A stretch of 64,000 bases of DNA from positions 2,122,391-2,186,390 of the forward strand of contig CAJINV010000004.1 in assembly GCA_905178155.1 (NCBI GenBank). The letters run 5' to 3'. Both the position numbers and the translations under genes were made by a program. This stretch comes from Amoebophrya sp. A120. Taxonomy: Eukaryota; Protista; Dinoflagellata. How positions within the stretch are numbered: position 1 is the first letter of the stretch; each line of letters starts with the position of its first letter. The notes beneath the pieces were generated by a model. It ran no database searches. It was not told the DNA's origin and saw only the letters and a list, made by a program, of their open reading frames with translations. Of this stretch, positions 33,876-63,300 are shown in pieces.

Positions 33876-34189
33876 AAAGAACCACCTGATCCCGCCACAC
33901 ACGCGGAGGGCAAAGGTGCGCCTTAGCCTCCAGGAGGCCAAGCTGCACCTTTGCAACGCCTTCCGCGTGGGAAGGCGGAGCTCCGCCGCCCGATTTCGTT
34001 AGAGTTTGCAATACAAATTGGCCTTCTACCCCGAAGGCCAATTTGTATTTTGCCAGATCCGAAGCAGCCGGGGGGCCGGAGAGGCAAACTGGCCCCCCGT
34101 GGCCAGTTTGCATGACAAATCGGGACGAATTTGCATTGCAATTTGCAATGCAAACTCGCCCGAGGTCCGATACCCTTGAGGCGGCTGAG

Positions 34190-35573: not shown

Positions 35574-35699
35574 GGCTGGCAGGTCTGGCATGCCAGACCT
35601 GCCAGCCCAAAAGTAAAAAAAGAAGAAATTTAATTCTCCTTTTTTTAACTTTGGGTTGGCAGCTCTGGCATGCCAGAGCTGCCATCCGTCAATGACGGA
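35574..35699. repeat. Nested palindrome / cruciform
   Basis: Perfect 34-bp palindrome (35574-35607), AT-rich hairpin, perfect 28-bp palindrome (35657-35684) sharing the core ctggcatgccag, then hairpin tccgtca-a-tgacgga. Confidence 0.9.
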
Positions 35700-36446: not shown

Positions 36447-36627
36447 TCGCAAAATCCCGCGCGTTGGCTGGCCAAAATTGCAAAATACCGCGCGTCGGCT
36501 GGCCAAAATCGCAAAATCCCGCGCGTTGGCCGGCCAAAATTGCAAAAGCCCGCGCATCGGCTAGCAAAAATCGCAAAATCTTGCGCGATGGCTGGCCAAA
36601 ATTGCAAAATCTCGCGCGCTGGCTGGC
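36447..36627. repeat. 31-bp tandem repeat (about 5.5 copies)
   Basis: Consensus gcgttggctggccaaaattgcaaaatcccgc. Confidence 0.9.
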
Positions 36628-44552: not shown

Positions 44553-47500
44553 CTAGTTGCGTCGCGCCCAAGCCCTTCGAAAAGGGTTCGGCACCCCATT
44601 AGCACGATCGGCCTTTGCCGCTGCAACGAGCTTCACAGCGAACTCTCTAATGGCGCTCGGTGATGAAAGAATTCCATTGAAGTGCGGGTATACTGCAAGA
44701 GGCCAGATGAGTGGCAAAATGCTCAACCCCAGCACTCCCCGGCGGCACACCGTAGTGATCGGCCCCATCCGCACGCCGAGCCACCGCGAAATCGTCACAT
44801 CCAGCTGCATCTTGTTGAACGCTTTCGCTATGTCATCAGACGTGTGCGCGCGGATGCCCGGCTTCATGAGAACGCCGATGATCTCCGATGGTCGGGACGC
44901 AATTGTTGCGATTTCAATCAAGCACTTATTCAGCGCTTGAAAGTTCGCGTACCCCCGCCCCAGAATTGTGTCGGAACGCGGAGCGCGCTTCCAGGGCACT
45001 ATACAGTTGAGAAGCCCGCGTTTTTCCACGTCGAGCACTTCCTGAATTCTATCTGCAAGATCCCGTTCTAGCAAGTAGCGACGCGGCACTGCCTCCCCCG
45101 GGGGCAAATCCTGCTGCTTCGGTGGCACTCCCGGAGACTTGGAATAATTCAAGCACTCCATGCCAATGAGCACCCTCTTCATAGGCTCAGATGGATGCCC
45201 CTCGCCGTAGTACACAGCGACACCGCCACTAACCTGCGAACAGTGGAGCGCTGCAAGTCCCCGCAAGTACGTGTCCAAAGGATCGTCGTCCTCGAGCTCC
45301 TTTGCAAGCGGGTCCGATCGCACGAGATCCTCGTCGATGTGGCGCACCATGCCACACGCAACCTCGAACGCAAACTGCGGTGTGCCGGGTGCAGCCGCAC
45401 TGCGGCGAGCCCACCACTTCATGTTCTCGGCGTGGAACTGCTCGAGCAAGTTGTACTCTTCTTTCGAAAGTTTGTGGTCCGCAGGAATATACTGGGAGAG
45501 CTCCGGCTTGTACCCAGAAGCCGCCCAGAGATGCCGAAGAATTCCCTTCGCAACGGCTTCGCCCGAAAGCACATCCGGACTCACATCCATAGTGAGCATC
45601 CCAGCGGCGCGGGCACGCCCGCGGGAAGGACCACGACCATCTTCAGCGACAATCTCGGCACGCTCCTGTTCCGCAAGCTTTGCCTTCTCCCGCTGCAACT
45701 CGCGTTCTGCCAAGCGCTCAAGTGCAGAAATTTCCGTGCGGACACTCCTGTCGCAAAGGATTGCTGCCTCTGCACTCAGAGCAGCGGTGTCCTCGCACAG
45801 CTGCGACGGTTGCTTGGTCGTGCGCACCTGTATGAACGCTAGATCCGGATCCTCCCTTGCAATGCGCCGAACCCCGAGGGTTTCCACCTCGAACACTGCA
45901 GAGAAATTGCGGTCGACTCGCTTTATGAAGATGCCTGCTCCGAGGAGATCACCCGCACCAAGAAGGCGAAAGCTTTGTGCTTTTCCTGCCGAAATCTCGA
46001 TGTGGACGAGATCACCGACCCGATACTGCGAAAGAGGAACAACCAGCCGGTGTCGCGACGCTGCCGCAAAGCGGTGCCAATCCAGTGCCGGGTCGTCAGC
46101 ATCGCCTCGAGAGGTACTCGCACCATCCGGGCGCACCTTTTTGGGGGTACTTTTCTTGCTGGCACCACGTGTTTTGGCGAAGCGCGGGAACCCACCCGAA
46201 AGCGCGTTCACATGCTGAGCATGCCCCTCCTCAGCCGGATCATCTTCCGCAGGGAAGACCTTCGAAGCAAACTTAGACACGAGAATCTGTTGCGTCACAG
46301 CATCCGGGTGCGATTTACTCTTGACGGGAACACGGTAGAGGTGGTACGGCAGCAGCGACATGCCGTACGAGTGGCGCCCCAAGTCGTAATTGCCAATCGT
46401 GATCGGCAAGTCGCCCGGCTGGTCCCCTGAACTCGGGAGAACGTACCCGCAAATAGGTGCCGACCGAAAAACTCTTCCTGTACGCGCGTCCGCAAGACCC
46501 ACCTGGAAAAGTATTACAACAGGATCTTTGTCCAGGTCCGACGCACCGGTGAACCCCTGGATTCGGTGCGGCCGCCACTTGCGGTTCGTACTGCCCGGAA
46601 CCACGCGAAGCCACCCCTTGGCCATCAGCGCCCGGCCGAACTCCGGGGAGATCACCGTTGTGATGAACTGCTGCGAGCTGCGCCAGAGCGAGCGTATGCG
46701 CCGTGGCCTCTTGTCCAACGGCACCGTCGGCCCCCCCGAACAGCCGCTGTCCGCTAAGGCAAGAGAAATGTCCTCGTTTGGAATGTCGCTCTCGCCGCAC
46801 TCTCCCTCAGGCGGGCTATACCGGACAGGCCCCTCGACCACTGCCACGGCGTGGGTGTCAGTGCAGAACTGGTGTCGCCCATCGAGTTTGGGATCTGCAT
46901 CGGCATTTTTTGCATGGCTCTTACCTAGCCAATGGTCGTCCGCAGCCGATGCAGCCATCTTATCCTCAGGACACGTCGGGAAAAGATCGTGGAGCTCGCT
47001 CGCAAAAAGCACATGGCCATCTGCGTCTACACTCTGGGGTGGGTACGACTCCTCCGGTGCAACCGGAGCTGTAGGAACCTTGCAGCCGGAAGCGTCTGAC
47101 GGTACTGTAGCTACGTCTGGTCGGATGGGCGCGCACGTACTGCGTTTAAAATTCGCGTGTGGTACGAACTCCACCTTTGAGCCAATACTGGGCGTTGCTG
47201 CAAATCCTGGCACCCGTAACGGTGAACCGAGGTCAACCATTCGCACCGACGGGCATGGCTCGAGAGGAAGAAGTTGCACATAATCTTCGCCGTAGTGCAT
47301 CTCGCTGTACTTCGCAGATATATCTGCTTCGAGCGAAAGGAGTGCATCGTCCACATCCGCCCAGCAGCGCCCCCGTGGTCGCACAGCCGTGCGGTGCCGG
47401 TCGTGATCCGAAGTAAGGAATGAGCTGCGAATCTCGCTACAAGTGGATCGCACCTTGAACATGGTTTCCATGCGGTCCACGAACTCCCCGCCATGGGTGT

Positions 47501-50500
47501 CCGACCACTGCGCCTCAAACTGCAGGCGGTTGATGTACAGAGCCCTTTCCTTCAGGCCCGCGTCGAAAAAAATCTTGATCCCGTCAAAGTTGTACTCAAC
47601 ACGCTGCACCTCTTCTCGTGCGAGTGGCCCGCAGTGCCCGCCCCGCTCAAGGAGTGAAAGCAAGCTTGCAACCTCGTACACCTGCTTCACGAACCCGAGG
47701 AACAACCCCTCACGCACCCCACGGTGGATTGTCTTTGCCATCTCCGTGTTCCCCACGCACCCAGTCACTGGAATACGCCCGCATGCTGCGCGCATGTGAG
47801 CATCTGCCACCACGGGGTCCGTCCTCGCATCAAGGTCTGCAGTCTCAATCTCTTGCTCGGTTGCGGTCACGGTTTCGCCGAGCTGGTCTTCTGCAAAAAT
47901 AGCGGGCTCACCCTTCGTGAACTTCAGAACGGCCTCGAGATCCGCACCCTCCTCGAGGGGATTATCTGTATCAGCGGTGCTGCAGGTGTCCCCCGCATCA
48001 GAATGTGCGTCTTCCTTCTTCACGTCGCTCGCAGCGTCCCTCGCACCGCGGTAGCTTTCATCGATCCACGACGGCACGAGCGATTCATCGCAGAGGCTCC
48101 AATGGGAAGGATACAGTGGAGCCCCGGTTGTGGATGTTACTCGCAAAGACCGTGCTTGCGCGGGCCCGTGCGTCGGATCCGGCCGGGGGCGTTTAAGGCT
48201 GGGCTCCTGTGCGCCCGACACCAAATCTTCACCCTGGTCCGCGGGTGCACCACGCGGTGTGGCAATGTCGAACACGTCGGGGCCTCGACCTTGCACAGGC
48301 GGTACAACTCCAGGTGGTTGTCGTGGGGGTACAATGGGTGTGCCAGGCACCGGCGGAATCTGTCGACCCGCTGGCCGCTGCGGTGAGCCATGTGGTGGTG
48401 GCATCGGCGATCGCACATGCCCCTGCGGTGTTGCAGCAGGATGCGGGCGAGAAGGTGGTGAAACTCCTCGTGGAATGCGCGCGGGGGTCTGTGGGCGTTG
48501 TGTGTTGTGTGCGTTGTCCTGTTGCTGGTGCGGTCTCTGAGGTACCCCTGGGCGGACGGCATCCCGGTTGTGGAGCAGCCCTGAAGCTGGAAGTGCTGCT
48601 TGAACTGCCGCTGCATCCGCGTCTAGCCGAAGGCGATTCTGTTCGAGTGACTCGCCCGTCCAGATGGGGTGCTCGAGATCGTTGAACCGAGCCTCCGCCC
48701 GCACCCAAATCTCGCCGTAGATGCAGCTACCCACACCTTCCGCACGCACATCCCCCGACAGCGTGTAGTTAGTGCGGTTGTACATGTACATTACATGCCG
48801 CCGACCGTCGTTGCCCTCGACTCCTCGCATGGGAAGCTGACCCATGTAGCGCCCCCACCGTTGGCCCGCAACACGCGTGCTCCGCGCAATAACCATGCCA
48901 TCCATTCCGATAGAAAAATCCATGGTGGTCAGGTGCTCAGGGTGGGCAGGATCCTTGGCTTGAAACGCTGCAAAAACTCGCGGTGGTCCTGTGGAGGGCG
49001 TGGCCCGTGCGAGGCCCACATGCACGAACTCCGCGGTGTGCCCAATACGCTTCCCCAGTGCACTAAGCACTACCCCGGGATCTTTGTGGTCCAGGGGCAA
49101 GCCGTAATTCGGCACGAGAAAGACGGCCCAATCCCCGGGAATATGTGCAAGCTTTTGTTGTGGGGCGCGGAGGAAATGCTCGATGTAGCCCATCGGAAAA
49201 TTCGCAGGCTTGATCTTTTCCCAAACCACGTCGTCCGGAGAAACAATGTACACGAAGTTCCCTGCAGTGATGTTGTACGAGCCAGCGGCTTCCCCCGAGC
49301 ACATCCCCCTCATCACCACGCGTTCGGGATGTCTGAAGAGCACGATATGCCCCTGAATGTTCTCCGGTCGCGCAGATGTGTAGTCGTACAGCGCGCGGGC
49401 ATCTGCAATGGCAAGCAATCGCTTTGTTGTGCGCGACCGCTGGATGTACGAATCAAGCAAACCGATCATGTGCCTCTCGCGCCAGAACCCCTGCTCGGCA
49501 CCCTTCACCATGGCGTCAAGGTTAATGCCCTGGAAGTGGATCATGTTCATTTTTGCCTCTGCAAAAATTAACCGCTCGTCTGCATCCCAGTTTTCCTCGC
49601 GGAACCACACGAACGAATCGTAGTAGATCACGGAGAACGCGTACTGCCGGCCGCCAACAAGACTGGTGCCTATGTTTGGACAGTGGAAGGGAACAGCCTG
49701 CACTTCCACATTGCGCAGCGTCACGTATGGAGCAGCCTGGAATCCTCGCATTTCCCGATCCGAGCACCGGACTAGGGTGAGGCGGATTCCGTTGTACGTC
49801 GCAAACATTTGCTCCGCCTCAAGCAGCTGCCGCCGTGGTTTCGGGTATGCAGATCGTCGCCTGATATGGCATCGGTGGTGGCCCGTAACGATCATCCTGA
49901 AGCACGTCTTTTCCTCCGAGCGGCACCACTCGGGCTCCTTCGCGGGGTCTGCAGCGAGACTGGCGTCTAGTTTGCCACCAAGTTCATCGTTGTCTTCCGT
50001 GAACTTTTTGAAAGACTCGCCCTCGTTTTCGTCGTACGTACGGTTGTGCACCACGAGGCCACTTTCGTTCAGCCAAATGAGATCTACCTCGAACACGCCG
50101 GGGCCGTGCATGTAGATCGACTCTGTTGTCTTGGGTTTTTGCCGTGCAAGCCGCCCCCCACAGCGCTCGCACTCGGAAATCACCTGCTGAATAAGACCGG
50201 CCTCTACGAAGAACGTGGATGCAGCGAACAAAACCTCCATTCTGTCCGATCGCTCGCAGCCAAGCGCCTTGTGCACATGCTCGATAAACGCGCGCGACGC
50301 ACGCCGACGCTTCCGCATTGAAACCGACCCAGGAAGCCAGTTTTCTGCTTCCAGCACGAGGTCCCGGAGCGCCATGTCGTAGGCAGTAGGTGAAGGCGTT
50401 AGCTCCTCCAGCGACTCAAGAGGCCCGACCTCGGACCTACCGGGGCGGAGTGATCCTTGGCTTGGAGTTGCACTGCGTTGCCGCGCGCGCGCAGCTGCGT

Positions 50501-53500
50501 AGGCCGCAGCGTACCGCTCTTCTTCTGCCCCATACTGTCGCACGACCTCCCGCTGTAAATATCCCTCGAACCATCCTAAACGAGCATGTAGGCGATCCAA
50601 GCGGTCCTCAGTAAGCACCGCGTCGTGGGGTCGCATTGCACGCGAGCGGGGCCTATCTGCATGGAGGAGTCCAAGTCGCTCAAGCACTGGGACCTCATGC
50701 AGCTTGAGCAGACATTTGAAGAAGATGCTCTGCGCTGATGGCGATGGCGCGGGCAACCGCCACTTTTCGATGAAATCTTGCTCTTGGGCTGTGGTTAGGC
50801 CGCGCATTCGCAGCGTGTGGAACGGACGCCACGCAACGCTGAGGTCATGCGGCGAGAGGGTGCGTGCCTCCGACACGCCAGTCCCAGAAACGCGACTTGT
50901 TGAAATTGTTACTGCACCGCCCCCGGTGAGGTTGTACGCGTGGACGTTCTTATCGATAACCGCGTAGGCACGGAGCCCGTCAAAGTGCGCAGCAGCTTGC
51001 TGGGGATTGGAACAATCCTCAAGTTCCACAAGCGGTGGCACTTGCACGCGCGAATCGAGCCCCTGGAGGATGGATCTGATTGTTGCAAGCCCCGCCACGG
51101 ACTCTTCGATCTTGATGCTTGAACCAAGTCTGAAAAGGCACCACCGCGGTGCGACCCCCGGTTTTGAAAGTTCGAGCCTGCACCTCAAAACCCACCTTGC
51201 ATCTGTCCAGCTGCCAGCGACCGTGTCATAGTACACGTCGCGGCAGCTGGACATCTGCTCCACAACCGCTACATCGCGCGCAACACGTTCGCGTAGTCGC
51301 ATGAATTCGGCCCCACTGTCGATGTCAAAAAGCTTGCCCTGCACGCCGTACTGCGTATCGCGGCTGGCGGTGTTTTTCAATTCCTGATCAAGGTCTGTAC
51401 GAATGGAAAGCGCCGCACTCGAACCCGCGGGCGGCGGTGCAACAAAAGCGTGTGGATCCGTGGTTAGGTGTGGCAAAAAACCTTTCGCCGTGTCGTATAC
51501 CCGCGGATCGCATGGAGTGCGTGTAACCGCCTGCGACGAGAGGAAGGTGGCAACATCCGCTCCCTGGTATTCCAGCACAGGAGCGAGCCCCGGCTTCAAA
51601 GTGCGGCTCACGCCTGTGTCCTCTGCTTCGAGGCGCTCAGGAGTGACGTTTGCAGGGGAGATAGAAATCGCACTCGCAATATCGGGAACACGGTCAAGAA
51701 CATCCATGATGGAGGCCTCCACCCGAGGGCCGGTACGCCCCTGCCGTTTATTGTTGCTGTTGCGCGGGGGAGCACCGACGGCTGCACGATCTCGGTGCCA
51801 CGTCTCCACCTCGTCGGGACGAAGTCCAGGTGGCAGGCACTCGATAGGAAAAACTTCATGCACCGCTTCGAGAATATGCGTCGAAATGTAGTCCCGCACA
51901 GTGAGGTCGTATCGCCGCTCGTCCCGCCCGAGGCTATCTGCAAGCCACAACCCCTCGCGGGATGCATGCATCCGGGTCAGCTGTGGTTTCAGGAACGCGC
52001 GAGACAAGAACTGCAGATCTTTTATCGTGGTTGACGAGCACCCCTGCTCCTGCTCAAAAAGCACGACGTTCCGCGAGTCGCCGATCAAAATGCGCCTCAA
52101 ATGTTCGATGGAAGGATCGACGTTTATCATGTAATCCTTTGCAATCGTGCTCTCGGCACCCAGCGGCTCCTTCGGCTTTCTTGTTGCAGGAAACGGCCGC
52201 GAACGGACCTTGTGAATGTCCACAACATCCCGCAGACTTTCGCCCTCCTTGAACTTACCGTTGAACTTCGCGGTTGGCATCGACATTGTAATTGCAGACC
52301 CACCCCGAACATGCGCATCCAAGACCGTGAACAAGGTGCGCTTGCCTGACTGCACCGCATCCTCATCGATTGGTTTGAGCGGATGCTGCATCACGCACGC
52401 GCGGAGCACATCGAGTGCCATGAGCGCCGACTTGGAGTGAATTATTTTCGCGTACTCTGCATCGCTCTCAATCCGCGACCACGGAGTGAGCTCTGCAAAA
52501 ATGAACGCTGCCCACGGGCCGAGGCACTCCATATTGAAGACCAAAATGCCTAACCGCGCACGGAGGTGTGCCGCAAACTTCGGCACCCGAGGCCATCCTG
52601 CAATGTTGTCGATCACCTCTTGCAAGGTGTACATCGTGCCTTGGCGCAGCAGCTTGCCACTCACCTTTACGCGCCGGCAATACCGCACCTCCTTGCGGAG
52701 CCCAAATTGCAGCCCCGTCATTCCGAGAGCAACATGGTTGCGCCCGCTCTTGGAGACATCCTCGTAGAAGTGCCGCGAAAAAATTGTGCTGTCATCGTAC
52801 ATGAGGCTCTGCGTCTGCTCTGAGTCGTTTTTTCCGTTCTGCGAAACCTTGATGTGATCGTCCACAACGGCGGTGCAAGCAGAGGATGCAATAAACTTCT
52901 CCCTATCCTTGCTGAACGCGTCGCACGGGCCAGACGACGCGGCATCTGCAGCTGCCGCATTGCGCATAGCGCGCCGCTGTTTCCCAACTGTAGCACCCTC
53001 GTGCAGATCAGAATCACCGGTGTGATCCGCATCTGGCGTGGGTTCAAGCCCCAACGAAGCGAGGTACTCGTCCACGAGATGGAATTTGTCCTCGGGGTAG
53101 TTGTGCACGACTTGGTAAGAAAAGGAAAACTCCCCCTCGTCGCAGTCGTCGTCCGAAATGCGGCGGAATCCATGTGCCAAAATCTCGCCGTCGGCCGTAC
53201 GAATTCGTCTTGTCTGCAACGCAGCGGCACCGTCAGGAAGATCTTCTGTATGCGCGTCTCCCTGAACCCGTTTGATGCGAGCCGGCGGGTTATCCTCCCC
53301 TGGAGCGTCGTCTGCAGCCTGTAGGCAATCGAGAAGCTCGGATGCAAGCGCTTTCTCATCGGACCCGTCCCACCGTGTCTTCGGTGCAAAAATCGTTTTG
53401 GGTGTTGGTACCGATATAAAAACTTCTGCAAGAGCAGCGTCCTCTGCGGTGTCGTCAGCTGCCACCGGCTCTGTCGCAGGGGCGCAGTACAAGTCACTGC

Positions 53501-56500
53501 TCGCGCGGGATGCAGGGCAGCAAACACACTTCCGTCCCACAGAAGTGCCACCCAAACCTGGTGGGGGAGCAACGTGGACTTTGGGTTGAAATCGCTCTGC
53601 AACCAGTGCTGCATGCATCGCCCTGTTCTGAAGCGAATGGAACGCCAGATCTGTCTCCACTTCCTCCTCCGCAATGCGCATTTGCCGCAGCCGTGCGTCT
53701 GTGCTGCAGCGGCGCGCAGCGGACAGGACCATCCCGATCGGGTAGTGGTCAAACGCACCGCGATCATTCCGCGAGGAAAGCTCCGCTTTTCGAACATATG
53801 AGAACGCGGGCTTGGAACTCGCCTGTGGCGGCTGCATGAGCAAAATGCAGTCCAGCCTCGTCTTGAAATTAACACCCGTGTGTCTGTTCCGGACGTACGT
53901 GGGGCACCGCCCCGAGTGGAGTTTTGCAGGACCGTCTGCTCGCGGATTTTCCACTGCACGGAACTCGTCGAAACCCGCATCAAGGAGGTCAAATTCCGCG
54001 CAGAGCTGATTTAACCACGCCTGCTCCCACGGGTAGCAGCCCGCACACCACTTTGAAAGCGATGCGTCCGGGATTCCATTTGCTGCAATGCAATCGTCGA
54101 CGTCCCTCGTGCAGTTAAGGTCGCCCATGAGCACGACATTGCGGATGCGCCCACCAGTCTGCGCATCGCGGAAAGTTTTCATGTACCCCCGCACCAGGTC
54201 GAGGAACTTCACCTTCGCTTCATTCGCGTCTGCAGATGTGCGTATTGGCGCCGAAGTATCCTCGTTGTAGTGGCTGCACGGTGCGTATGCACTCAGGAAG
54301 ACGTCTCCTCGCGGCAGATGCAATGCTGAAAGTCGCCCTTCGTCTTTTTCGAGGCGAAAGAACTGCGCGCCAACGCAGAAGCCTGTGCGAACGATAAATC
54401 CCGTCCCATGCAGTCCTCGCGCAGTGTCGCCTACGTTTAGGAAAAGTCGCCAGTCCTTGGACCCGACGAGGGATACGAACAAATCCTCCACCTCCGAGCG
54501 TCGAGCAGTACTCACTTTTGTTTCCTGCAGCGCAATGAGGGTGACGTCCGGCCGTGAGAGAAGCGCCTTGAACTCCTTCGGCCTGTCAAGGAGCTGCCTC
54601 TTCAGTGAGGTGGCGCCGCAATTCCACGAAAAATACCCCTCGGACTCCCTAACCGCACCCGCAGGTTCATTCGCGTTGACCTGTCTCCGCCGTGGTGAGG
54701 TGCCGCTCGTGGGGAGAGCAGACTTCTCCACCAGTTCTTCGTCCGGATCAGCACTGCGGCACTCGAAAGCGAAAGCTACCCGCATTCTCTCGAGGCGCCG
54801 GGCCTCATCGCGCCGGGACAGCCTCTTAGCGGATGCAAGCGCTGTCATGAGCCTCCTCTCACGCCCGCGCTCGGCGAGAAGCTTGTGCGCCTTCCGCTGG
54901 TACACCTGGCCCCTCCGCAACTCGTCGTTGGGAATAATTTTTCCAATGAAGTCCGGGACGGGGTGGTAGATGCACTGGCCGCCGCACAGGGTAAACTCCT
55001 GATGTATGAAGCTGAAGATTTTTCCGTATGTATGCGATCTCACAGCAGGGCGGAGGCCAGGCGTGAACGTATTTCTGTCGCAGTCGAGGACCCCGAAAAC
55101 TTTCTCATGCGCGTCCTCTTCAGTCAGCAGCAAGAGGAGGGTGCGGAGAAAAAACCACGAACGATCCACGCCCTGTTTGCAATGCACAAGAACACGGAGC
55201 GGTGTGTTCTTGGGCCAATCTTTGGGCACGGAGAAACCGAACAAAAACTCGTCCAGCCCCTTGTACAAAGCCTGCAGCGATGCGCGTCCATCCTTGAAGT
55301 CGAATCGGACCCTCACCTGGGGCACGCCCGCACACTTGCTATCGGATGTAGGATCGGGAAGATTGCTGGTGCAATTCACGAGGTAATCCCACTTCTGCTC
55401 TTCACGCGCCTCGAGCGTTCCGAGGTGCAGCTCCACGTTACCACCGACAGTGCAGATGTGCGTCACACTCTCCCCCAGAGTGCCGCATGCACTAGCGAAT
55501 ACGACGTCTCCGCGGTTTTTTGCAAAAAACTCGGCGTCCCCTTCCTTCATTCGGGCGGGGATGCACTCCCAAAAATGATCTCTAGAAGCCGAGTCTCGCT
55601 GCGCGATGGCCTGCCGGTACTCCGCATCCGTGAGAGGGCTGCATCTCGTGCACCCAGACTCCCAGAAAAAATCTTTGAAGTTGTCCTCCTCATGCGCACA
55701 CAAAGAACGCACCTTCGCGGTGGAATTCTCCGCGGTGATCGGCGGCGCCGCAGGTAACGGCGGCGTAGCAGCGTCGTCAGAAGGCACATCTTCACAAAGC
55801 ATAGTGGTAGTGCTATTTCGCAGAAGTCCCTTCGCCGGTAAGAAGTGCGCCGTGCACTCGCCGCACTGCACGCACGCCTTGCGGTACGTGTTCTGCTCCA
55901 CCTTTGCATGTCGCCAATGCACAAGCGTAGCACCCATGTTGGTAACCCGCTCTCGGAGAAGATTCACGAACAGGATGCCCGAGCGGGTGTCCCCATCAGC
56001 ACATGCGGATCCAGCGTAACGCCCGCCAGTGATGAGCGTACGCCTCAGCCAAATAATGGCTGCTCTTTGCAGGAGCCGAGCCGCCATGTTCTCAAGATAC
56101 CCCCGTGATGATGCGGGATGCGGGTACTTCAGAAGGGGAACTTGTGGTGCTGGCGCCCTGGCACGACCGCTACCGTGGCGAAGCTGCAAGATCGGTCGAT
56201 TCGCGATGAGCTTGTACCTGGAAGCGACTCGTTCGGTCGAAGATCGGAAGCACGTAAGATTACGCCGCACAGACTCTGCTGCAAGAACATCAAGAAGAGC
56301 CCCCGACTGCACGTCGCCCTCGTAACACGCGGAGCCGCGGTACTGGTCACGCTCCAGAAGGCACTGCCGAAGCCAAATAACAGCAGCACGCTGGATAAAC
56401 CATGCTGCGGCGTGCTGTACCTCCTCGTCTCCCACCGGTCCTCCACAGGGTGCAGGGTACCACCCACGACGCGCGTTTGGAGGTGCCTCCGCAGGGTTGT

Positions 56501-57371
56501 CCGATCGAACGCTCTTTGAAGTGCCCGCCTCCTTCACGGGCGGATCACGGCGTCGTTGCACGACGCACGACGGAAGACCCACTTTCTCAAAAGGCGTGTT
56601 GTAAAAAATGCACTTGATGCCTTTCTTTTCGCACTTGCGCACAACTCGCTGGAGTTCGTATGTCACCGATTTTGCCTGTGTGTGCGACCCCGCAGTCCGG
56701 TCGCAATGGATCTCCTTGACTCCAGTAAGGTCCTGGTCGAAAAAGTCCGAGAAGCCCTCCTGCAGCCGCTCGAGGTCCACATGCCAGCCCCAGCGGCACC
56801 TGATGTGGAATTCGTACTCCCGGAGTGGGCCTCTGCTGTCGACATGTACAAACCGAATCGCTCGCTGCGTTTCCTGAAGCTGGATCTCATGCAAATCCGC
56901 CTGTAACTCCACCGCATCGCGGAGCCGCATGACCAAGACGCGGCCAAAGTCTGTGGGGAGAAGAACTCCCTCGCCCGTGTTGTTAATGAGCGGCACATCT
57001 TCTCGCGCATCAGGTTGTGCATAAAAAGCACTGCTGCTTGCCGGCGGAAGTCCCAGCAGTCGCGTGCGGGGTACGGGCAAGTTGTCGATGTTGTCAAGGC
57101 GAACCGAAGCCATGCAAGTTCCAAAATGCGGTGCGCCATGAGCAGCGAGTCGACAATGTACCGCTTCACCTCCGCTCCAACTTGGAACAGCGCGGTACCA
57201 AGCACGACGTTGCTGTCGAGGTTGAAAATCGGCTTGGCGTCCGTGTGCAAACGCGCACGGACCAGGTTTTTGCACGCGATCTTGTCGGCACTCAAAACGA
57301 CATTTGCATATCGAAACTGGCGCAGGTGTGCAATAAGATGTTGCGCCGACATATCGATCACCGTGCGGCAC
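44553..57371 (-). CDS. ORF3 polyprotein (about 4,200 aa): DSP phosphatase, ExoIII/APE, RT C-half, RNase H, integrase-like, aspartic protease, RT N-half
   Basis: HCKQGVDRS (55161-55184); SWN/QETK/AYAP/GDLN/RLD/DHYP (53725-54640); MYDD..GLQF..K..WPRVP..LRARLG (from 52802); LDAH/GAES/GDSR/LADSLGR (51920-52320); HKALGC..CERC..VDL..SDRE (49490-50290); LADSGCS..TIGNYDL (46370-46780); NFQALNK..DIAKAF..GVLGL (44553-45020). Likely translated from about 57113 or by frameshift from ORF2. Confidence 0.85.
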   Translation of the reverse strand: MPHGDRYVGATSYCTPAPVSICKCRFECRQDRVQKPGPCAFAHGRQADFQPRQQRRAWYRAVPSWSGGEAVHCRLAAHGAPHFGTCMASVRLDNIDNLPVPRTRLLGLPPASSSAFYAQPDAREDVPLINNTGEGVLLPTDFGRVLVMRLRDAVELQADLHEIQLQETQRAIRFVHVDSRGPLREYEFHIRCRWGWHVDLERLQEGFSDFFDQDLTGVKEIHCDRTAGSHTQAKSVTYELQRVVRKCEKKGIKCIFYNTPFEKVGLPSCVVQRRRDPPVKEAGTSKSVRSDNPAEAPPNARRGWYPAPCGGPVGDEEVQHAAAWFIQRAAVIWLRQCLLERDQYRGSACYEGDVQSGALLDVLAAESVRRNLTCFRSSTERVASRYKLIANRPILQLRHGSGRARAPAPQVPLLKYPHPASSRGYLENMAARLLQRAAIIWLRRTLITGGRYAGSACADGDTRSGILFVNLLRERVTNMGATLVHWRHAKVEQNTYRKACVQCGECTAHFLPAKGLLRNSTTTMLCEDVPSDDAATPPLPAAPPITAENSTAKVRSLCAHEEDNFKDFFWESGCTRCSPLTDAEYRQAIAQRDSASRDHFWECIPARMKEGDAEFFAKNRGDVVFASACGTLGESVTHICTVGGNVELHLGTLEAREEQKWDYLVNCTSNLPDPTSDSKCAGVPQVRVRFDFKDGRASLQALYKGLDEFLFGFSVPKDWPKNTPLRVLVHCKQGVDRSWFFLRTLLLLLTEEDAHEKVFGVLDCDRNTFTPGLRPAVRSHTYGKIFSFIHQEFTLCGGQCIYHPVPDFIGKIIPNDELRRGQVYQRKAHKLLAERGRERRLMTALASAKRLSRRDEARRLERMRVAFAFECRSADPDEELVEKSALPTSGTSPRRRQVNANEPAGAVRESEGYFSWNCGATSLKRQLLDRPKEFKALLSRPDVTLIALQETKVSTARRSEVEDLFVSLVGSKDWRLFLNVGDTARGLHGTGFIVRTGFCVGAQFFRLEKDEGRLSALHLPRGDVFLSAYAPCSHYNEDTSAPIRTSADANEAKVKFLDLVRGYMKTFRDAQTGGRIRNVVLMGDLNCTRDVDDCIAANGIPDASLSKWCAGCYPWEQAWLNQLCAEFDLLDAGFDEFRAVENPRADGPAKLHSGRCPTYVRNRHTGVNFKTRLDCILLMQPPQASSKPAFSYVRKAELSSRNDRGAFDHYPIGMVLSAARRCSTDARLRQMRIAEEEVETDLAFHSLQNRAMHAALVAERFQPKVHVAPPPGLGGTSVGRKCVCCPASRASSDLYCAPATEPVAADDTAEDAALAEVFISVPTPKTIFAPKTRWDGSDEKALASELLDCLQAADDAPGEDNPPARIKRVQGDAHTEDLPDGAAALQTRRIRTADGEILAHGFRRISDDDCDEGEFSFSYQVVHNYPEDKFHLVDEYLASLGLEPTPDADHTGDSDLHEGATVGKQRRAMRNAAAADAASSGPCDAFSKDREKFIASSACTAVVDDHIKVSQNGKNDSEQTQSLMYDDSTIFSRHFYEDVSKSGRNHVALGMTGLQFGLRKEVRYCRRVKVSGKLLRQGTMYTLQEVIDNIAGWPRVPKFAAHLRARLGILVFNMECLGPWAAFIFAELTPWSRIESDAEYAKIIHSKSALMALDVLRACVMQHPLKPIDEDAVQSGKRTLFTVLDAHVRGGSAITMSMPTAKFNGKFKEGESLRDVVDIHKVRSRPFPATRKPKEPLGAESTIAKDYMINVDPSIEHLRRILIGDSRNVVLFEQEQGCSSTTIKDLQFLSRAFLKPQLTRMHASREGLWLADSLGRDERRYDLTVRDYISTHILEAVHEVFPIECLPPGLRPDEVETWHRDRAAVGAPPRNSNNKRQGRTGPRVEASIMDVLDRVPDIASAISISPANVTPERLEAEDTGVSRTLKPGLAPVLEYQGADVATFLSSQAVTRTPCDPRVYDTAKGFLPHLTTDPHAFVAPPPAGSSAALSIRTDLDQELKNTASRDTQYGVQGKLFDIDSGAEFMRLRERVARDVAVVEQMSSCRDVYYDTVAGSWTDARWVLRCRLELSKPGVAPRWCLFRLGSSIKIEESVAGLATIRSILQGLDSRVQVPPLVELEDCSNPQQAAAHFDGLRAYAVIDKNVHAYNLTGGGAVTISTSRVSGTGVSEARTLSPHDLSVAWRPFHTLRMRGLTTAQEQDFIEKWRLPAPSPSAQSIFFKCLLKLHEVPVLERLGLLHADRPRSRAMRPHDAVLTEDRLDRLHARLGWFEGYLQREVVRQYGAEEERYAAAYAAARARQRSATPSQGSLRPGRSEVGPLESLEELTPSPTAYDMALRDLVLEAENWLPGSVSMRKRRRASRAFIEHVHKALGCERSDRMEVLFAASTFFVEAGLIQQVISECERCGGRLARQKPKTTESIYMHGPGVFEVDLIWLNESGLVVHNRTYDENEGESFKKFTEDNDELGGKLDASLAADPAKEPEWCRSEEKTCFRMIVTGHHRCHIRRRSAYPKPRRQLLEAEQMFATYNGIRLTLVRCSDREMRGFQAAPYVTLRNVEVQAVPFHCPNIGTSLVGGRQYAFSVIYYDSFVWFREENWDADERLIFAEAKMNMIHFQGINLDAMVKGAEQGFWRERHMIGLLDSYIQRSRTTKRLLAIADARALYDYTSARPENIQGHIVLFRHPERVVMRGMCSGEAAGSYNITAGNFVYIVSPDDVVWEKIKPANFPMGYIEHFLRAPQQKLAHIPGDWAVFLVPNYGLPLDHKDPGVVLSALGKRIGHTAEFVHVGLARATPSTGPPRVFAAFQAKDPAHPEHLTTMDFSIGMDGMVIARSTRVAGQRWGRYMGQLPMRGVEGNDGRRHVMYMYNRTNYTLSGDVRAEGVGSCIYGEIWVRAEARFNDLEHPIWTGESLEQNRLRLDADAAAVQAALPASGLLHNRDAVRPGVPQRPHQQQDNAHNTQRPQTPARIPRGVSPPSRPHPAATPQGHVRSPMPPPHGSPQRPAGRQIPPVPGTPIVPPRQPPGVVPPVQGRGPDVFDIATPRGAPADQGEDLVSGAQEPSLKRPRPDPTHGPAQARSLRVTSTTGAPLYPSHWSLCDESLVPSWIDESYRGARDAASDVKKEDAHSDAGDTCSTADTDNPLEEGADLEAVLKFTKGEPAIFAEDQLGETVTATEQEIETADLDARTDPVVADAHMRAACGRIPVTGCVGNTEMAKTIHRGVREGLFLGFVKQVYEVASLLSLLERGGHCGPLAREEVQRVEYNFDGIKIFFDAGLKERALYINRLQFEAQWSDTHGGEFVDRMETMFKVRSTCSEIRSSFLTSDHDRHRTAVRPRGRCWADVDDALLSLEADISAKYSEMHYGEDYVQLLPLEPCPSVRMVDLGSPLRVPGFAATPSIGSKVEFVPHANFKRSTCAPIRPDVATVPSDASGCKVPTAPVAPEESYPPQSVDADGHVLFASELHDLFPTCPEDKMAASAADDHWLGKSHAKNADADPKLDGRHQFCTDTHAVAVVEGPVRYSPPEGECGESDIPNEDISLALADSGCSGGPTVPLDKRPRRIRSLWRSSQQFITTVISPEFGRALMAKGWLRVVPGSTNRKWRPHRIQGFTGASDLDKDPVVILFQVGLADARTGRVFRSAPICGYVLPSSGDQPGDLPITIGNYDLGRHSYGMSLLPYHLYRVPVKSKSHPDAVTQQILVSKFASKVFPAEDDPAEEGHAQHVNALSGGFPRFAKTRGASKKSTPKKVRPDGASTSRGDADDPALDWHRFAAASRHRLVVPLSQYRVGDLVHIEISAGKAQSFRLLGAGDLLGAGIFIKRVDRNFSAVFEVETLGVRRIAREDPDLAFIQVRTTKQPSQLCEDTAALSAEAAILCDRSVRTEISALERLAERELQREKAKLAEQERAEIVAEDGRGPSRGRARAAGMLTMDVSPDVLSGEAVAKGILRHLWAASGYKPELSQYIPADHKLSKEEYNLLEQFHAENMKWWARRSAAAPGTPQFAFEVACGMVRHIDEDLVRSDPLAKELEDDDPLDTYLRGLAALHCSQVSGGVAVYYGEGHPSEPMKRVLIGMECLNYSKSPGVPPKQQDLPPGEAVPRRYLLERDLADRIQEVLDVEKRGLLNCIVPWKRAPRSDTILGRGYANFQALNKCLIEIATIASRPSEIIGVLMKPGIRAHTSDDIAKAFNKMQLDVTISRWLGVRMGPITTVCRRGVLGLSILPLIWPLAVYPHFNGILSSPSAIREFAVKLVAAAKADRANGVPNPFRRAWARRN

Positions 57372-60300
57372 CTGTAGGTGTGTCCATCCGCTGCGTGGTA
57401 TGTCTCATCCAGCGACTGAAATCCCCCCTTGGACTTGCTCCAACCCGTGCATATCGGGAAAGCTCGTGGCTTGGGGCCGAGCCCCTTCGACATGCAGTAA
57501 TCCGCGCTTCGATACGGCCGAATCACCGCGTTGCCCCCACCAGGTTTCAGCATGTGCAAATGTTCGTAGCTCTCGTTGAAGAGGTAGAGTGCGTCGGGCA
57601 CGCTCTGCTGCTTAGTCATGTCGTCAAAATCACCCCAGCACCCTCGCTTCGTATAGGTGCTAACGAGAAAATTTGTTGCGTGCTCTGCGCTGGAATCCAC
57701 GACCGGAATCTCGACCGCAATCGAGCCGCTTTTCGGAGGAAGCACCTGTGCCGAAACAGGTTCTCCCTCGGGGTTCTGCAACAGGTCCGTGAGCTCCGAC
57801 ACGGCATGATGCGTGGTGGCAGCTACGAATGGGTCTGGTGGTGGCGCAGCTGCAGCGGGTGCAGCCGGGCCTCGGCGGTTCGGGCGGCGTTTGACCTTCT
57901 TCTTCTTTTCTGTATCCCCGTCAGAATCAGCATCCTTTGCCCCGGTGGAAGTGTCTTTGCCAGCCGTACTTTTCTTTGGTGTAGCACCCGATTTCGCAGG
58001 TGGCTTCACAGGCGCAGGAGTTGCAGTATCTGAATTCTTTGTCGTGCGGAGCGATGCACCCGAAACATCGAGCCGGATCTGTCGCCGCACTGCCATTAGC
58101 GCAAGCCCAAGGCAGTTAAGCCCCCGCCAAAGCGAAGCGTTCTTGTGCAAGCCCTTGTCACGCGCACTCTTCAGCGGAACCCCGATGCCCCAGATGGTAT
58201 CGAGTCGTGCCTCTGCGAGGATGTGGTCGCCTGTAGCATCTAAAAAACGCCACAGCTCGGGATTCTGGGTGAACTTCAGGTAAAGTCCCCGCGTCATGAC
58301 CGCAAGCCGCACCCGAGTCCACGTGTTGTTGTCGAAATTCTCGACGCACCGCCCGACTCGCTTCTGCTCGACAGGGTCGGCTGCTGCAAGGATCATTGCA
58401 GCAGCATTCGCATCCCCAAACAAAATGGCCTTCTGGCGCATGAGCCACTGCTCGGCGCAGTTGTAGGTGACACCGTCGACCACGAACTCACTGTCGTACC
58501 AGTTGGAAAGCGGGCCCCGTTCGAAAAGAAAAAACGACTTGGACATGCCAGGATCTCGCGTGAAGTCGTTCCGAAGTGCGTCTAGAGTGCAGCTGTGCTC
58601 GAAGAACATTTGTGTCTCGATCTGCGAAACGCACGGCAGGTCCCTCACCTGAATCGCCCCTGTAGAGGTGTCCTGCGTCCCCGATGGTGTGGCCGCAGAA
58701 GGTGTTGCTGCAGGCTTCGTGCCACTTTTTGCCCCCTTCTTCCGGCCGTCAGAACCTCCGCCGGTGCCACCCGCAGATCCAGATCCACCGGCCCCCGAGC
58801 CACCGTCCGCACCATTGGGACGGGAGGTGCCAAAGCGGTGCACATTGTCCTCCATTCGCTTGAAGAGTTTGCACCACCTCAAAACTTCCCAAAGAACGTC
58901 CCCGTGGCAAACAGACGGCAATCCCTTCGCGGAGCAGGTGCAGAAAATCTTGCGCCCCGGCAAAAATCGCATGATGTTCACCAACAAGGAGATGTTCGAG
59001 GAAACGTAGTACGCAAATTTGAAGCACGCATCCGCGGCAGGAACACCCGGTGAAACGCGGAAAGGGTTTCCAAAAATGCCCTTAGTTCCCTTGTGCCGCC
59101 GCACATCTACCGTGGACGCCTCGGTTGGATCTTTCGCAAATGAAGGTCCCGCAGGGGAGCGCCGCTTGCTGTGCCAATCCTCGTCGACAAACTTGCGCCA
59201 CGGAAACTTCAGCAACCTCTCCCTCGCACGATATGCCCACTGCGGAATCGTGTTGCAGGCTGCGAGCTTCGTCAGCTCGAAAGTTCCCCGCTGTTTCTTT
59301 GCAATCACCTTGCCGTCGCGCTCCTCGGGCATCCGCTCCACGCAGATCTCGGACACCTGCACCCGAGGGATCGTCATGAGGCGCAGCTCCAAGAAGGAAC
59401 GCCTCCCCTTCATGATTGCGTTGAAATCGCCCACGTAGATGGTCATCACCTTGCCGCGCGTTTCGGCTACGTTGAGCCGCTCCGGTGTAGCCATAAGTCC
59501 ACCGACTACGAACGGCCCCGAAGGTGAAACGCTGAGGTCCACAATGACAAGGTCCTTCTCGCTGCCCTGAATCTTGTCAATGTTGCCACAGTGTTCGCGT
59601 ACACGGAAACCCTGGTCGTAGTACAGTTTTGCTTGCGCGTTGGTGTAGGTGAGAACAACAATCTCGTCCCAGCGCGCACCCTGGCTCAGGAGCCATTTGT
59701 GCACCTCCAAGACTTTCGTGAAGGAAGACATGCATACCTCGGATTTGCGGGCGCGGTCAGATGGAACAAAAACTCCGACGACCGACTGCGCAGGCACTTT
59801 GAAGTTGTTCTCCGTCGGCCCACCTGCAACGAGCTCACCGTCGTAGAACACGTCATTGGCCCACCTGATCGAAGCCTCCGGACACCGGTACTGCGTGTTG
59901 AGTCGCAATGGTCGCCGGGGTGGTACCAGCGAGCGAAGCGCGTTGATAGCCCTCATCAGGAAGGAGCACTTGAGGATTATCTGCGCTATCTCGGGGCATG
60001 CATGCACATTGGGGCTAAGCTGCTCAATGTCACCGCCGCACACAAGCCGCAGAATCACCTTCATCAGTGCGATGAGAAGGTGCTCGGGGCACTGGCCGAT
60101 CTCGTCGACAAAAGCGATGTCGAACACCCAGTCGAAGGTGCAAGCATACTGGATGGTGGCAATGATTATTTCGTGGTTTCGCTGCATGAACTGCACGCAC
60201 TCATCCCACTGTTGTCCCACCTTCTGCTGCAGCTCAGTGCGCTCCTTCGAAGGATTGAGCCTGTCCGTGATCGGGAGTGCGTCAAGCCGCCTAGAATCGC

Positions 60301-63300
60301 GCAAGTATTTCCCGCACTCCGACTCGGGCTGCGCAGCTGCACGCGCGGCAATTCGCGAGTGGATGTTGTAGTCCGGCAAGTTCTTCTCGTGGCGGTACTT
60401 CCTCGCGCTGATTTGGCACACCTCATGCGTTCGCGATGCTCGCTCTGCCATGCCATCCGCAGCTTTGTTTGTAGGCCCCGCAAGGAGGACGCGGCAGGTC
60501 ACCTCCGCACGGCGCCTTTCCGCGAGGAAGTCGATAAAACTTTCGACTGCAGTGCGGCTCTTTCCAACTGCAGGTGGTCCATCAAATGCAATGATCTCGC
60601 CCACCGACATCTCGGAAATACCGCGATGCAACTCTGCGCGTCGCAACTGCGCGTCAGTTGAATCGAACTCCGACTGGAGGTGCACAACGCGCGCATGCGC
60701 AAAATTCTCAACGCATGGGAGCGTGTCCCAGTAGTCGCACTCGAGAGCGTCTAGTGCTCTCCTTGCATCCTGGTCGTAGACGCAAAAGTGCACCTCTGCC
60801 TCGAACTTGTCCGTGAGGAGCTCATCCACGACGTCATCTTTGTTGAAGCAAGTCCACGCGCCCCCCTTGCGAAAAAAATGTAGTGGTTCTATTTTCTCCG
60901 TGCGTGCAGGGATAGCAGACTTCTTCACCGTCACAATGCATCTGGTAAATTCCTGTACGTCTTGGCCCTCGGGCTTGTAGTTGCCAACACAGCGTACCTG
61001 CACCTGCTTAGACACCGCGGGCATGTTCAGCTGGAAATCGAGGCTCTTGTCCTCAGGCGAAGTGTTCCACTTGCGCACCAGCTGGCAGTGGTTTGCGTAA
61101 AAAACCGGTCCTGCAGGATTGTCGACAATCGCCTCCAATGCGGCACCCACAACTCGCTGGTACTCAGCAACGTCCTTGTACCGCGGGCACTCGAGCGCAT
61201 TCTTCTTCCGCAAAGCCCGATGTAGCTCGCGGCCCTCAGCCACACTGAAATCGTAGCGCTCCTTCGCAACCTGCTCCTCCGACGCACCCAAGACCGACAG
61301 GCCAACCTCCCGCTGGTCAAGCACAGGTTTTTGCGCGGAACCCCCGATGCCCTCGCTGTCACTAGGCTCGCTCGCGGCAGCCCCCGATGGTGATAGCAAC
61401 GAGGGGGAGTCATCGCCGGGTGACGGAAAACACGAATCTTCTCGCTGGACCCCCGATGGCTCGTCCTCGCGGTACTCGCGGTGCTCCGCCCAAGCCAAAT
61501 CCCCTCTCTCACCCCGTGTATCGGCGCCAGCACGCGGCGTGCGCACTGCGTCCGGGGCAGGTTCAACTTCGCGGGGTGCGACTGCATTTTCAGGGTTGGT
61601 ATTCTCAGGCGATGTAGTGGGTGTTTTCCCCTGGTGCGCCGTGGTTTCCACCGGTGCAGCGGTTCCAGAATCCACCGTTGGTGCGCCCTCACCTGCATCT
61701 TCCGCGTCCGCAACAACCAAAGGTGTGGCTTTGCCCGCGTACTGCTGCAGCTCCTCGTCAGCAGCACTCTCCGGTGTGCCGAGGGGAAGCAAGTTTTCCA
61801 CGGAACTATTCTCGGCCCCAGCTGCCTGTAAAAGGCGGCCTGGGTCTGGACTTGCTGGTGGTTCGCACGCCTGCTCGGGATCCTGGTGCTTGCCACTCAC
61901 TTCCGGGGAGCAATCTCGCGCTGCAACTTGATCCTGCGGGACCCCCGGAGAAGTATCACTCGTCCCGGCGTCAGGTGCAGGCTCCGCTAGAAGGGACGCA
62001 CTGGTTGTATTATGTGGGGCAGCGGACGGAGGGTTCGTGTTACAAGTGCCATCCATGTGATCATGCAGTGCAGGCAAAGAGCATATCGATGCTGCCGCAC
62101 TTGAATCCCAAGGAGTACCTGCCTCCCCGCCTTTTTCTGGCGTCCGGGCGCCGCGGGATGCCTGTATATTTGTATTATTTTCAACTTTTGCATACGGTGC
62201 TCCTGCTCCGCACCCACCGGGCGGGCGATCAGCCGTGTCGTTTGCGGCTGCAGCTAACGTCGCAAGAGCGTCCGACAACACCGCGGTAGCACGGATCGTA
62301 GACGGTCCCACCGACGCGGATGCGCGCGGCTGTAGTGGCGATCGTGTGGTGAGGAGCGGAATCTTCTGCAGCGTCACCCCCTGCAGGGCCTGCGCAGGCA
62401 TAGCTCCAGCGCCCCGGATCCTCGGCGTAGCCGGGGGCGTAACATCCGGCGGTGCTGTGCATTTGGTTGAAATCGGTGCGTCCACGCCCAACTCATCGTC
62501 AAGCAGAACGCTGTCCCCGATGCCCGAACTCCCAGAAAGTACTGAGTCCGCACCGGGGCTCGCCAGCAGGGCGTCCTCCTCATCCTCGTCGTCGGAGGCG
62601 CCACGCAAAACCGAATCTGAATCATCATGCAGGTCATCGTCGTGTGCGACATCCGCATGCGAGGATCGGGACGACCCCGTGGGATAAAGCTCTGCAGCGT
62701 CCCCCTCCTCGTCGGAATACCCGTCAAGAACAGAATCAGAATCGTCATGCAGCTCGTGGTCGTCGTGTGCATCATCGGAAGCACCGTCGAGCACCGAGTC
62801 GGGATTGCTGCAGGCGTCATCTTCGTCATAGAAATCATTTGCAGATGCCCCACGGGCAGATCCTGCTGAAAAATGCGAATGGTCGGATACCTCGTCCAGA
62901 ACTGAATCACCATCGAGGACTGATTCCGAATCTTCATGCAAGCTGGCCTCATCAGGGTCAGCGTCAGCAGGTCGAAACAAAAACGGCACTTCATCATCAT
63001 TAGAAGCGCTGGGTGAAGAAACACCCGCGTCAAGCGGGGGAGAACCTGAAACAGAAAGTTCGTCGTGCAAAAAATCCTCCGCGTCGGAGGCAGAAGAAGA
63101 AAGATTGCTAAAATTGTCCCGGCAAGCAGTTGTTTCTGGCCGTGTTTGCTGTAATTGTTTTTTTCGGTCCGAGCTGCCGTTTGTGCCGTAATCGCAAGCG
63201 TCACCCGCACTAGGCGGATCAGGCGGATCAGGAGGTTTAGGTGGAATGTTTGACTGCAACACCACGAAAGCTGCGGCAGTACTGGCCTTTTCACCTGCTC

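Follow-up and report, generated by a model that had tools for sequence, protein, structure and literature searches.

A reverse transcriptase encoded as two separated halves, motif C ahead of motifs A and B', in a giant open reading frame of Amoebophrya sp. A120

The minus strand of a 64,000-nucleotide stretch from the dinoflagellate Amoebophrya sp. A120 (GenBank assembly GCA_905178155.1, contig CAJINV010000004.1, positions 2,122,391 to 2,186,390 of the forward strand), hereafter the window, carries a very long open reading frame (ORF), ORF3, in which a reverse transcriptase (RT) is laid out in two pieces, with its C-terminal half (C half) encoded upstream of its N-terminal half (N half). ORF3 spans 44553-57404 and comprises 4,283 codons from stop to stop, with the first Met at residue 98 (57113); residues are numbered here from the upstream stop. 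Its base composition predicts about 151 stop codons, and none is found (log10 P(none) of about -67). Following a dual-specificity phosphatase-like (DSP) domain and an exonuclease III/AP-endonuclease-like (EEP) domain, the order is RT C half/RNase H, integrase-like, protease-like, beta-rich domain, and RT N half, located as follows:

52350..52829, minus strand, RT C half (motif C Y1536-D1537-D1538, motif D Lys, primer grip, thumb, and connection; assigned by profile and model)
51915..52349, minus strand, RNase H domain (D1696, E1751, D1776, and D1823; assigned by fold match and conserved acids)
49035..50318, minus strand, integrase-like domain (H-x4-C/H..C-x2-C zinc-finger-like motif, D2441, and D2549; assigned from a 13-row alignment)
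46305..46802, minus strand, retropepsin-like protease (D3552-S-G; conserved motif)
45795..46064, minus strand, beta-rich domain of about 90 amino acids (aa), conserved, between the protease-like domain and the RT N half
44562..45284, minus strand, RT N half (fingers, motif A, and motif B', then about 50 residues and the stop; assigned by profile and conservation)

Domains of ORF3

The motif C segment SLMYDDSTIFS (52808-52776, with YDD at 52799-52791) starts at residue 1533 and is followed, in order, by GLQFGLRK, VKVSGKLL, IAGWPRVP, HLRARLGIL, and FAELT, and then by the RNase H motifs LDAH, GAES, GDSR, and LADSLGR. Far downstream come LADSG (46757), GRGYANFQALNK (44960), HTSDDIAKAF (44846), and RRGVLGLSILP (44744), before the stop at 44553. 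The motif C Asp precedes the motif B' Pro by 2,694 residues, the segment from RT motif C through the thumb to RNase H occupying residues 1526-1830 and the RT fingers with motifs A to B' residues 4076-4276. A first-pass annotation, made by a model from the sequence alone, had listed these motifs in this order, and all of them are present; its residue numbers were about 9 to 11 too low, since the motif C segment starts at residue 1533 rather than 1524 and the motif A Asp is D4191 rather than approximately D4180.

Standard profile libraries do not recognize this polymerase. The check that the annotation had proposed, a profile search with ORF3 subfragments, came out negative, with no RT, RNase H, rve, or protease match in Pfam for the whole of ORF3 or for 18 fragments, and 12 fragments run against each of NCBIfam and PHROGs were equally silent for these four. 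Single-sequence searches of PDB sequences with two fragments did not recognize an RT, word-based protein searches with the RT halves were empty, and the ESM Atlas returned weak, unrelated leads only. The identity of the RT C half and RNase H is instead established via relatives, and that of the N half more weakly so. A phmmer search with residues 1480-2600 against 1.84 billion representative proteins (E<=0.001) recovered 21 relatives, 12 of them long (2,240-5,213 aa) and nine fragmentary (72-502 aa), with identities to the window of about 21-34%, and of 22-34% over the searched region. A metagenome locus (L001) considered as a further relative lies within an unrelated ORF, oxidoreductase-like by eye, and was set aside as a chance match.

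A profile of the C half matches RTs of the Moloney murine leukemia virus (MMLV) type (E of 4e-4) and the cauliflower mosaic virus (CaMV) RT, with RTs filling the top five of 10 matches. When a seven-row profile was kept in family order, it matched the CaMV RT (PDB 8r0s) as two swapped pieces with a whole E of 9.3e-5, profile positions 450-554 aligning with chain residues 303-406 (motif C onward) and positions 2339-2427 with residues 203-289 (motifs A and B'); six further matches at E<=10 bring the total to seven, all of which are RTs. Folding the C half from a single sequence gave an unusable model (predicted local distance difference test [pLDDT] of 33), and a model built from 20 alignment rows reached a pLDDT of 79. 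Foldseek searches with the latter (residues 1526-1836) placed the CaMV RT first (E of 2.4e-8), with RTs of CaMV, MMLV, foamy virus, xenotropic murine leukemia virus-related virus, and Ty3 (4ol8, E of 5.6e-6) in the first 11 places. By VIA, the model aligned with the MMLV RT at a Z of 14.5 (root mean square deviation [rmsd] of 4.7, 213 aligned) and with the Ty3 RT 4ol8 at a Z of 10.6, and model residues of about 160-295 aligned with RNase H1 folds at a Z of 10.6 (rmsd of 2.9, 109 aligned). Judged by this predicted fold, residues 1526-1836 are the C half of an RT with its RNase H, of the LTR (long terminal repeat)-element/retrovirus/caulimovirus type, which bears out the placement of these domains in the first-pass annotation at residues of about 1515-1830. 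These matches do not favor the Ty3 RT over those of CaMV, MMLV, or foamy virus. Hence, the annotation's assignment to the gypsy type holds for an LTR-type RT and RNase H but is loose, because the best matches are caulimoviral and retroviral RTs as much as Ty3 and because the integrase-like domain is without the canonical Glu.

The N half is assigned from its motifs together with a profile match. Motif A is centered on D4191 (44834), with F4196 (44819) at the steric-gate position, and motif B' contains G4226 and P4231. A trimmed 13-row profile of this region has as its top PDB match the CaMV RT 8r0s, residues 144-290 (E of 0.024, one of two matches at E<=10). The catalytic residues that had been reported as kept in both halves are indeed conserved: the motif A Asp in 13/13 rows, Phe or Tyr at the steric gate in 13/13, the Asp pair of motif C in 15/15, and the four RNase H acids in 15, 15, 15, and 14 of 15 rows (Asp, Glu, Asp, and final Asp, respectively). 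Near-invariance of the acids at 21-34% overall identity suggests that both halves have been conserved under selection for catalysis.

The integrase-like and protease-like labels derive from conserved motifs, and both domains should be regarded as putative. In the former, the motifs are those that we take to be typical of LTR-type integrases: the zinc-finger-like motif retains its His in 13/13 rows, Cys or His at the next position in 13/13, and the two following Cys residues in 13/13 and 11/13, and both Asp residues are present in all 13. Integrases generally follow a D,D(35)E triad rule. The position 35 residues after D2549 is Gly in the window and G, C, or S in seven, four, and two of the 13 rows, with no Glu; a substitute third acid might be supplied by the acidic columns at +2 and +61. 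No match emerged when the integrase-like profile was compared with PDB, with one Copia integrase, and with three IS3-family transposases, and the shallow templates lend these comparisons little power. For the integrase-like domain of the first-pass annotation, the alignment shows the zinc-finger-like motif and the two Asp residues but neither the canonical Glu nor a profile match. For the proposed DSG retropepsin, the window has DSG and the Asp is invariant in 13/13 rows, but a D-S/T-G motif is seen in only 8/13, and Pfam scans gave no match. In most relatives the beta-rich domain comes after the protease-like domain, and the two remain together where the RT halves have exchanged places. The idea that it might be a dUTPase relic, suggested by part of the text of PMC6431247, was unsupported in a comparison with 10 dUTPases (probability 1.2%, 8 columns).

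Domain order among the relatives

Both RT halves were detected in 12/12 long relatives with profiles built from the family, as was the integrase-like domain. The order of the window, with RT(C)/RNase H, integrase-like, protease-like, and beta-rich domains preceding a C-terminal RT(N), is shared by 11/12, with the qualification that the protease-like domain of P0023 is seen by alignment only and the beta-rich domain is not detected in every relative. Across the window-order rows (11 measured; P0024 was not aligned), motif C lies 1,991-2,694 residues ahead of motif B', and in 11/11 the chain ends 42-60 residues past the B' Pro in a conserved tail. The relatives come from NCBI, ENA, JGI/IMG, Logan, MetaClust, and EukProt; among 19 looked up, two are labeled Amoebophrya (AT5.2 and A25), and marine metagenome names are attached to two clusters. 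Many lie on contigs of 15-32 kb, near the size of the element, and one on a 1.9-Mb Amoebophrya contig. Scans of viral contigs and prokaryote genomes found no DNA of these relatives.

One long relative departs from this order. In P0010, RT(N) follows the EEP domain, the integrase-like and protease-like domains come next, and RT(C)/RNase H is C-terminal, so that the halves are swapped and 1,819 aa apart, an arrangement found in 8/8 full-length members of its cluster. P0010 groups with P0008 and P0011, both of which have the window order. A third arrangement is found in P0009, a fragment of 424 aa in which the end of RT-N lies directly before RT-C, with 107 residues from the B' Pro to motif C, as against 23 over the same interval in the CaMV RT (from alignments). 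P0009 retains the extra segments that flank the break and falls with the window clade (quick tree, support 91); it may reflect renewed fusion of the RT, splicing, or a join made in assembly. Both the P0010 and the P0009 states seem to have arisen from the split arrangement.

When RT-N, RT-C/RNase H, and the integrase-like domain were each placed in a tree of 13 rows, four subgroups were common to the three trees, namely, P0005 with P0007 (and P0006), P0008 with P0010 and P0011, P0015 with P0021, and a grouping of P0023 and P0024. The RT-N and RT-C trees thus appear largely to agree, as expected if, contrary to one of the outcomes that the annotation had listed as fatal, the halves do not stem from unrelated RT lineages. 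Because the order of ORF3 is shared by relatives, the trees largely agree, and no long repeat, duplication, or LTR-like remnant was found inside ORF3, it is unlikely for the family that two elements were fused by chance. In the same vein, the proposal that selection, not a unique and decaying tandem fusion, accounts for the window copy is borne out by the 11/12 long relatives with its order. The accompanying proposal of a circular permutation fits the window order, but the family is more than a one-off permutation, with one lineage swapped and one fragment having the halves adjacent.

Comparisons, proposed mechanism, and alternatives

Reverse transcriptases are usually described as continuous palm domains, and the pol order of Ty3/gypsy elements is protease, RT, RNase H, and integrase. 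Like Ty3/gypsy elements (Metaviridae), the family has a single pol that combines protease-like, RT, RNase H, and integrase-like domains, in an order that is a circular permutation of theirs, and the fold of its C half matches the Ty3 RT 4ol8. Unlike them, it lacks the order with a continuous RT: the window and 11/12 long relatives have RT(C)-RNase H-integrase-like-protease-RT(N), and 1/12 has RT(N)-integrase-like-protease-RT(C)-RNase H. Further differences are that the break in the RT falls between motifs B' and C, its halves lying about 1,800-2,700 aa apart; that the integrase-like domain is without Glu at D+35 and Pfam yields no match to RVT_1, RT_RNaseH, or gypsy-type rve; and that the cargo consists of a UPF1-like helicase, an EEP nuclease, and phosphatases. 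Giant gypsy elements such as Ogre and Burro have been described (PMC6431247, in the available text of which the words “permut” and “split” are absent), and NADAR is mentioned for one Ectocarpus Gypsy lineage in the accessible part of PMC12477816.

The best profile and fold matches of both halves are to RTs of Caulimoviridae (CaMV, PDB 8r0s) and retroviruses (MMLV and foamy virus), but those RTs form one continuous chain, whereas that of ORF3 is split. Caulimoviruses are described in the portion of PMC11363490 available as lacking an integrase, in contrast to the integrase-like domain found throughout the long relatives here. As in LINEs (long interspersed nuclear elements) of the APE type, an EEP/APE-like nuclease lies upstream of the RT, and a superfamily 1 (SF1) helicase cargo is noted for insect TRAS LINEs (PMC6338049, in part). 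Unlike LINEs, however, these elements have an LTR-type/pararetroviral RT with RNase H, their RT halves are separated by protease-like and integrase-like domains, some members lack EEP, and the helicase is UPF1-like (AAA_11/AAA_12) rather than of the viral SF1 type.

Closer parallels for the break itself are offered by RNA viruses. In splipalmiviruses, which are split-palm narna-like viruses, motifs A and B of their RNA-dependent RNA polymerase (RdRP) are on one protein that is described as being without a motif C domain (PMC7724248, in part); the palm is likewise spread over two pieces with the same break point, which we treat as an analogy, with no homology claimed. Theirs is an RdRP encoded on two RNA segments, whereas here an RT with RNase H is encoded in halves within one DNA ORF. 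In the RdRPs of Birnaviridae and Permutotetraviridae, the motif order within one protein is C-A-B (PMC7724248, in part, citing Gorbalenya 2002), so that, as in ORF3, motif C is encoded ahead of A and B. In these permuted-palm RdRPs the palm is one compact domain, whereas here motif C moves with motifs D and E, the thumb, and RNase H, and the halves have entire domains between them. That the same seam separates the palm of the split-palm RdRPs suggests, by analogy, that it may be a general break point of right-hand polymerases.

A full-text literature search, which covered few subscription journals and no Repbase and so leaves absence unproven, found no retroelement whose RT is split or permuted, in keeping with the annotation's remark that no described LTR-type element with such a layout was known to it. 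The available text of two Amoebophrya genome papers mentions LTR elements in general terms only (PMC7789003 and PMC12005148). Hence, the architecture is apparently undescribed, although its parts are of known LTR-element type, and we lean, by a narrow measure, toward regarding these as a new group of giant marine-protist retroelements (at least 20 kb here) with a natural two-piece RT whose parts are freely re-ordered and an integrase without the Glu of D(35)E.

The two-piece layout, comprising the halves, their order, the catalytic residues, and their conservation in the family, is directly observed. With regard to how it works, we propose that ORF3 encodes an LTR-type RT as two pieces, the C half preceding the N half, and that these probably assemble into an active enzyme once they have been cut free by the protease-like domain of the element itself. 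The layout would have arisen once, in the ancestor of the family, by circular permutation of a protease-RT-RNase H-integrase pol opened between motifs B' and C, possibly through tandem duplication followed by loss of the outer parts. The RNA of the element would be translated as a polyprotein, with ORF2, the reading frame upstream, joined to ORF3 in most relatives and, in the window copy, connected to it by a -1 shift or followed by a separate start. The aspartic protease would release RT-N (fingers and motifs A and B') and RT-C/RNase H (motifs C to E, thumb, connection, and RNase H), and the palm would be rebuilt from D4191 of one piece and D1537/D1538 of the other, with the extra segments at the break perhaps acting as a clasp. 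The cDNA might then be inserted by the integrase-like domain, using a different third acid or two acids, and the helicase, EEP nuclease, phosphatases, and NADAR domain would be interchangeable cargo. Since the swapped P0010 and the adjacent P0009 both fall inside the family, the order of the pieces seems not to matter, and an enzyme indifferent to order and spacing would favor a two-piece RT assembled after self-cleavage.

Several observations weigh against this proposal. With respect to the polymerase itself, the match of the N half is modest when taken by itself, a looser RT-N alignment profile found no RT in PDB, and the motif C strand is poorly modeled in the C half (pLDDT of 36-53 over residues 1-20). 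The trees have starred support on just three, three, and five of 10 inner branches (RT-N, RT-C/RNase H, and integrase-like, respectively), the RT-N tree does not resolve the position of the window, and P0009 is one fragment from a single 1.8-kb contig. Because relatives were collected by likeness to the split C half, unsplit kin are possibly undersampled. As for the later steps, the protease-like motif departs from D-S/T-G in 5/13 rows and no cleavage sites were identified in the polyprotein; the integration step is weak, given that Glu is missing at D+35 throughout and that no known integrase profile is matched; and the frame shift between ORF2 and ORF3 could be a disabling indel in the window copy.

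An alternative that dispenses with cleavage is that the palm assembles within one uncut chain, the last domain docking about 2,700 residues back with the integrase-like and protease-like domains looped out. The presence of every domain in one ORF, the degenerate protease-like motif in those five rows, and the lack of a cleavage motif speak for it; however, the same chain would have to serve both orders, including the swap in P0010, across 1,800-2,700 aa, the protease-like Asp is invariant in 13/13 rows, and LTR-type polyproteins are generally cut by their own protease. We consider such an uncut enzyme unlikely. The order could also be restored in the RNA, by back-splicing or trans-splicing that connects RT-N, at its end, with the beginning of RT-C, yielding a circular or rearranged message that reads protease-RT-RNase H-integrase. 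A single back-splice would suffice to undo the window order, which is an exact circular permutation, P0009 has an RT-N to RT-C junction, and Amoebophrya, the sole named host of the relatives, has spliced-leader transcripts and noncanonical introns (PMC7789003, in part). A stop 42-60 residues past the B' Pro with a conserved tail in all 11 measured rows of window order is at odds with such a joint, as is P0010, which would require another splice, and P0009 may be DNA or RNA derived. We find RNA-level reordering improbable.

It is conceivable, too, that the split RT is active but that the element is episomal and pararetrovirus-like or is inserted by its EEP nuclease, the integrase-like domain having some other role. 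This would be in keeping with the missing Glu, with the CaMV RT being the top sequence and Foldseek match, with EEP being present in the window and 7/12 long relatives (8/13 in total), and with the many relatives on contigs near element size. Short contigs are also expected of repeats, though, the window copy lies in repeat-rich, chromosomal-looking DNA, and one relative is on the 1.9-Mb Amoebophrya contig. Furthermore, the integrase-like His, first Cys, and both Asp residues are kept in all 13 rows, and because P0017, P0018, and P0021 are long and helicase bearing but have no detectable EEP, that domain cannot be a universal integrase substitute; this explanation seems to us to have a slim chance of being correct. 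Finally, a misassembly or an in-frame chance fusion of two adjacent retroelements, to which the absence of canonical slippery sites at the ORF1/ORF2 and ORF2/ORF3 shifts might point, is very improbable in view of the same order in 11/12 long relatives from NCBI, ENA, JGI/IMG, Logan, and EukProt, the invariant catalytic residues, the 4,283 codons with no stop, and the absence of an internal LTR or duplication.

If the two-piece RT assembled after self-cleavage is correct, a conserved family with its catalytic Asp residues on two pieces and three tolerated orders would imply that an RT palm can be cut between B' and C, and this natural split point would offer a directly testable starting point for RT tools of a conditional or two-part kind. 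A further question, raised by the missing integrase Glu, is how these elements insert. Moreover, as Pfam RT models do not detect the family, many copies may lie unannotated in protist genomes.

Accessory domains, neighboring ORFs, and surrounding DNA

The remaining features of the element and its vicinity are as follows:

54990..55472, minus strand, dual-specificity phosphatase-like domain of ORF3 with an HCxxGxxRS motif (Pfam DSPc E of 0.03; E of 2e-5 in relative P0007)
53721..54644, minus strand, EEP (exonuclease III/AP-endonuclease-like) domain of ORF3 (Pfam PF03372 E of 1.9e-4, below cutoff; TIGR00633 E of 3.6e-5)
56663..63430, minus strand, ORF2, 2,255 codons, overlapping ORF3 in the -1 frame
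60643-59399, minus strand, UPF1-like SF1 helicase domain of ORF2
59122-58889, minus strand, DUF4326 domain of ORF2
58519-58073, minus strand, NADAR domain of ORF2
56995..57115, minus strand, zone in which the coding signal (codon log-odds) changes frame from ORF2 to ORF3
63352..63999, minus strand, ORF1, cut by the window edge, overlapping ORF2 in the -1 frame, in gag position, with no Pfam match
44293-43442 (283 aa), 43059-41905 (384 aa), and 40153-37757 (798 aa), minus strand, downstream ORFs, candidate members only

In ORF2, the Pfam matches AAA_11, AAA_12, DUF4326, and NADAR are all above cutoff. We take ORF2 to belong to the element because the helicase is inside the RT ORF itself in 7/12 long relatives. 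The two successive -1 overlaps (ORF1/ORF2 at 63430-63352 and ORF2/ORF3 at 57404-56663) contain no canonical in-frame slippery heptamer of the form X XXY YYZ. Cargo varies in Pfam scans of 14 relatives, with PP2C in P0018, NADAR in P0021 and P0023, and DUF4326 in P0007 and P0008. A protein-kinase-like stretch, recognized by eye from a motif, seems to be present near residues 2050-2300 of P0024. In P0011, an Amoebophrya gene model, Copia-type integrase and RT are seen upstream of the family domains (residues 465-547 and 1148-1289), probably as a nested insertion merged by gene prediction.

The three downstream ORFs have a codon bias similar to that of ORF2 and ORF3, with no match in Pfam or among the 21 relatives; by eye, the one at 40153-37757 has a long charged, coiled-coil-like stretch. 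As regards the tyrosine recombinase typical of DIRS retroelements, no Pfam recombinase was found in the window ORFs or in 14 relatives, a search in which Pfam also misses their RT. Between 33000 and 64000, there are no Rfam families and no long direct repeats besides local tandem arrays; the 5' end of the element lies beyond 64000. Such arrays include a 22-bp unit at 34190-34507 and a 31-bp unit at 36439-36627, and a cluster of long hairpins occupies 33637-35864, with a perfect 26-bp inverted repeat at 33637-33692 and others of 32-71 bp. Farther away, the region 600-31900 is populated by dispersed repeat families of 30-300 bp, arranged as direct and inverted pairs with a frequent spacing of 1.4-2.2 kb, which resemble nonautonomous inverted-repeat elements.

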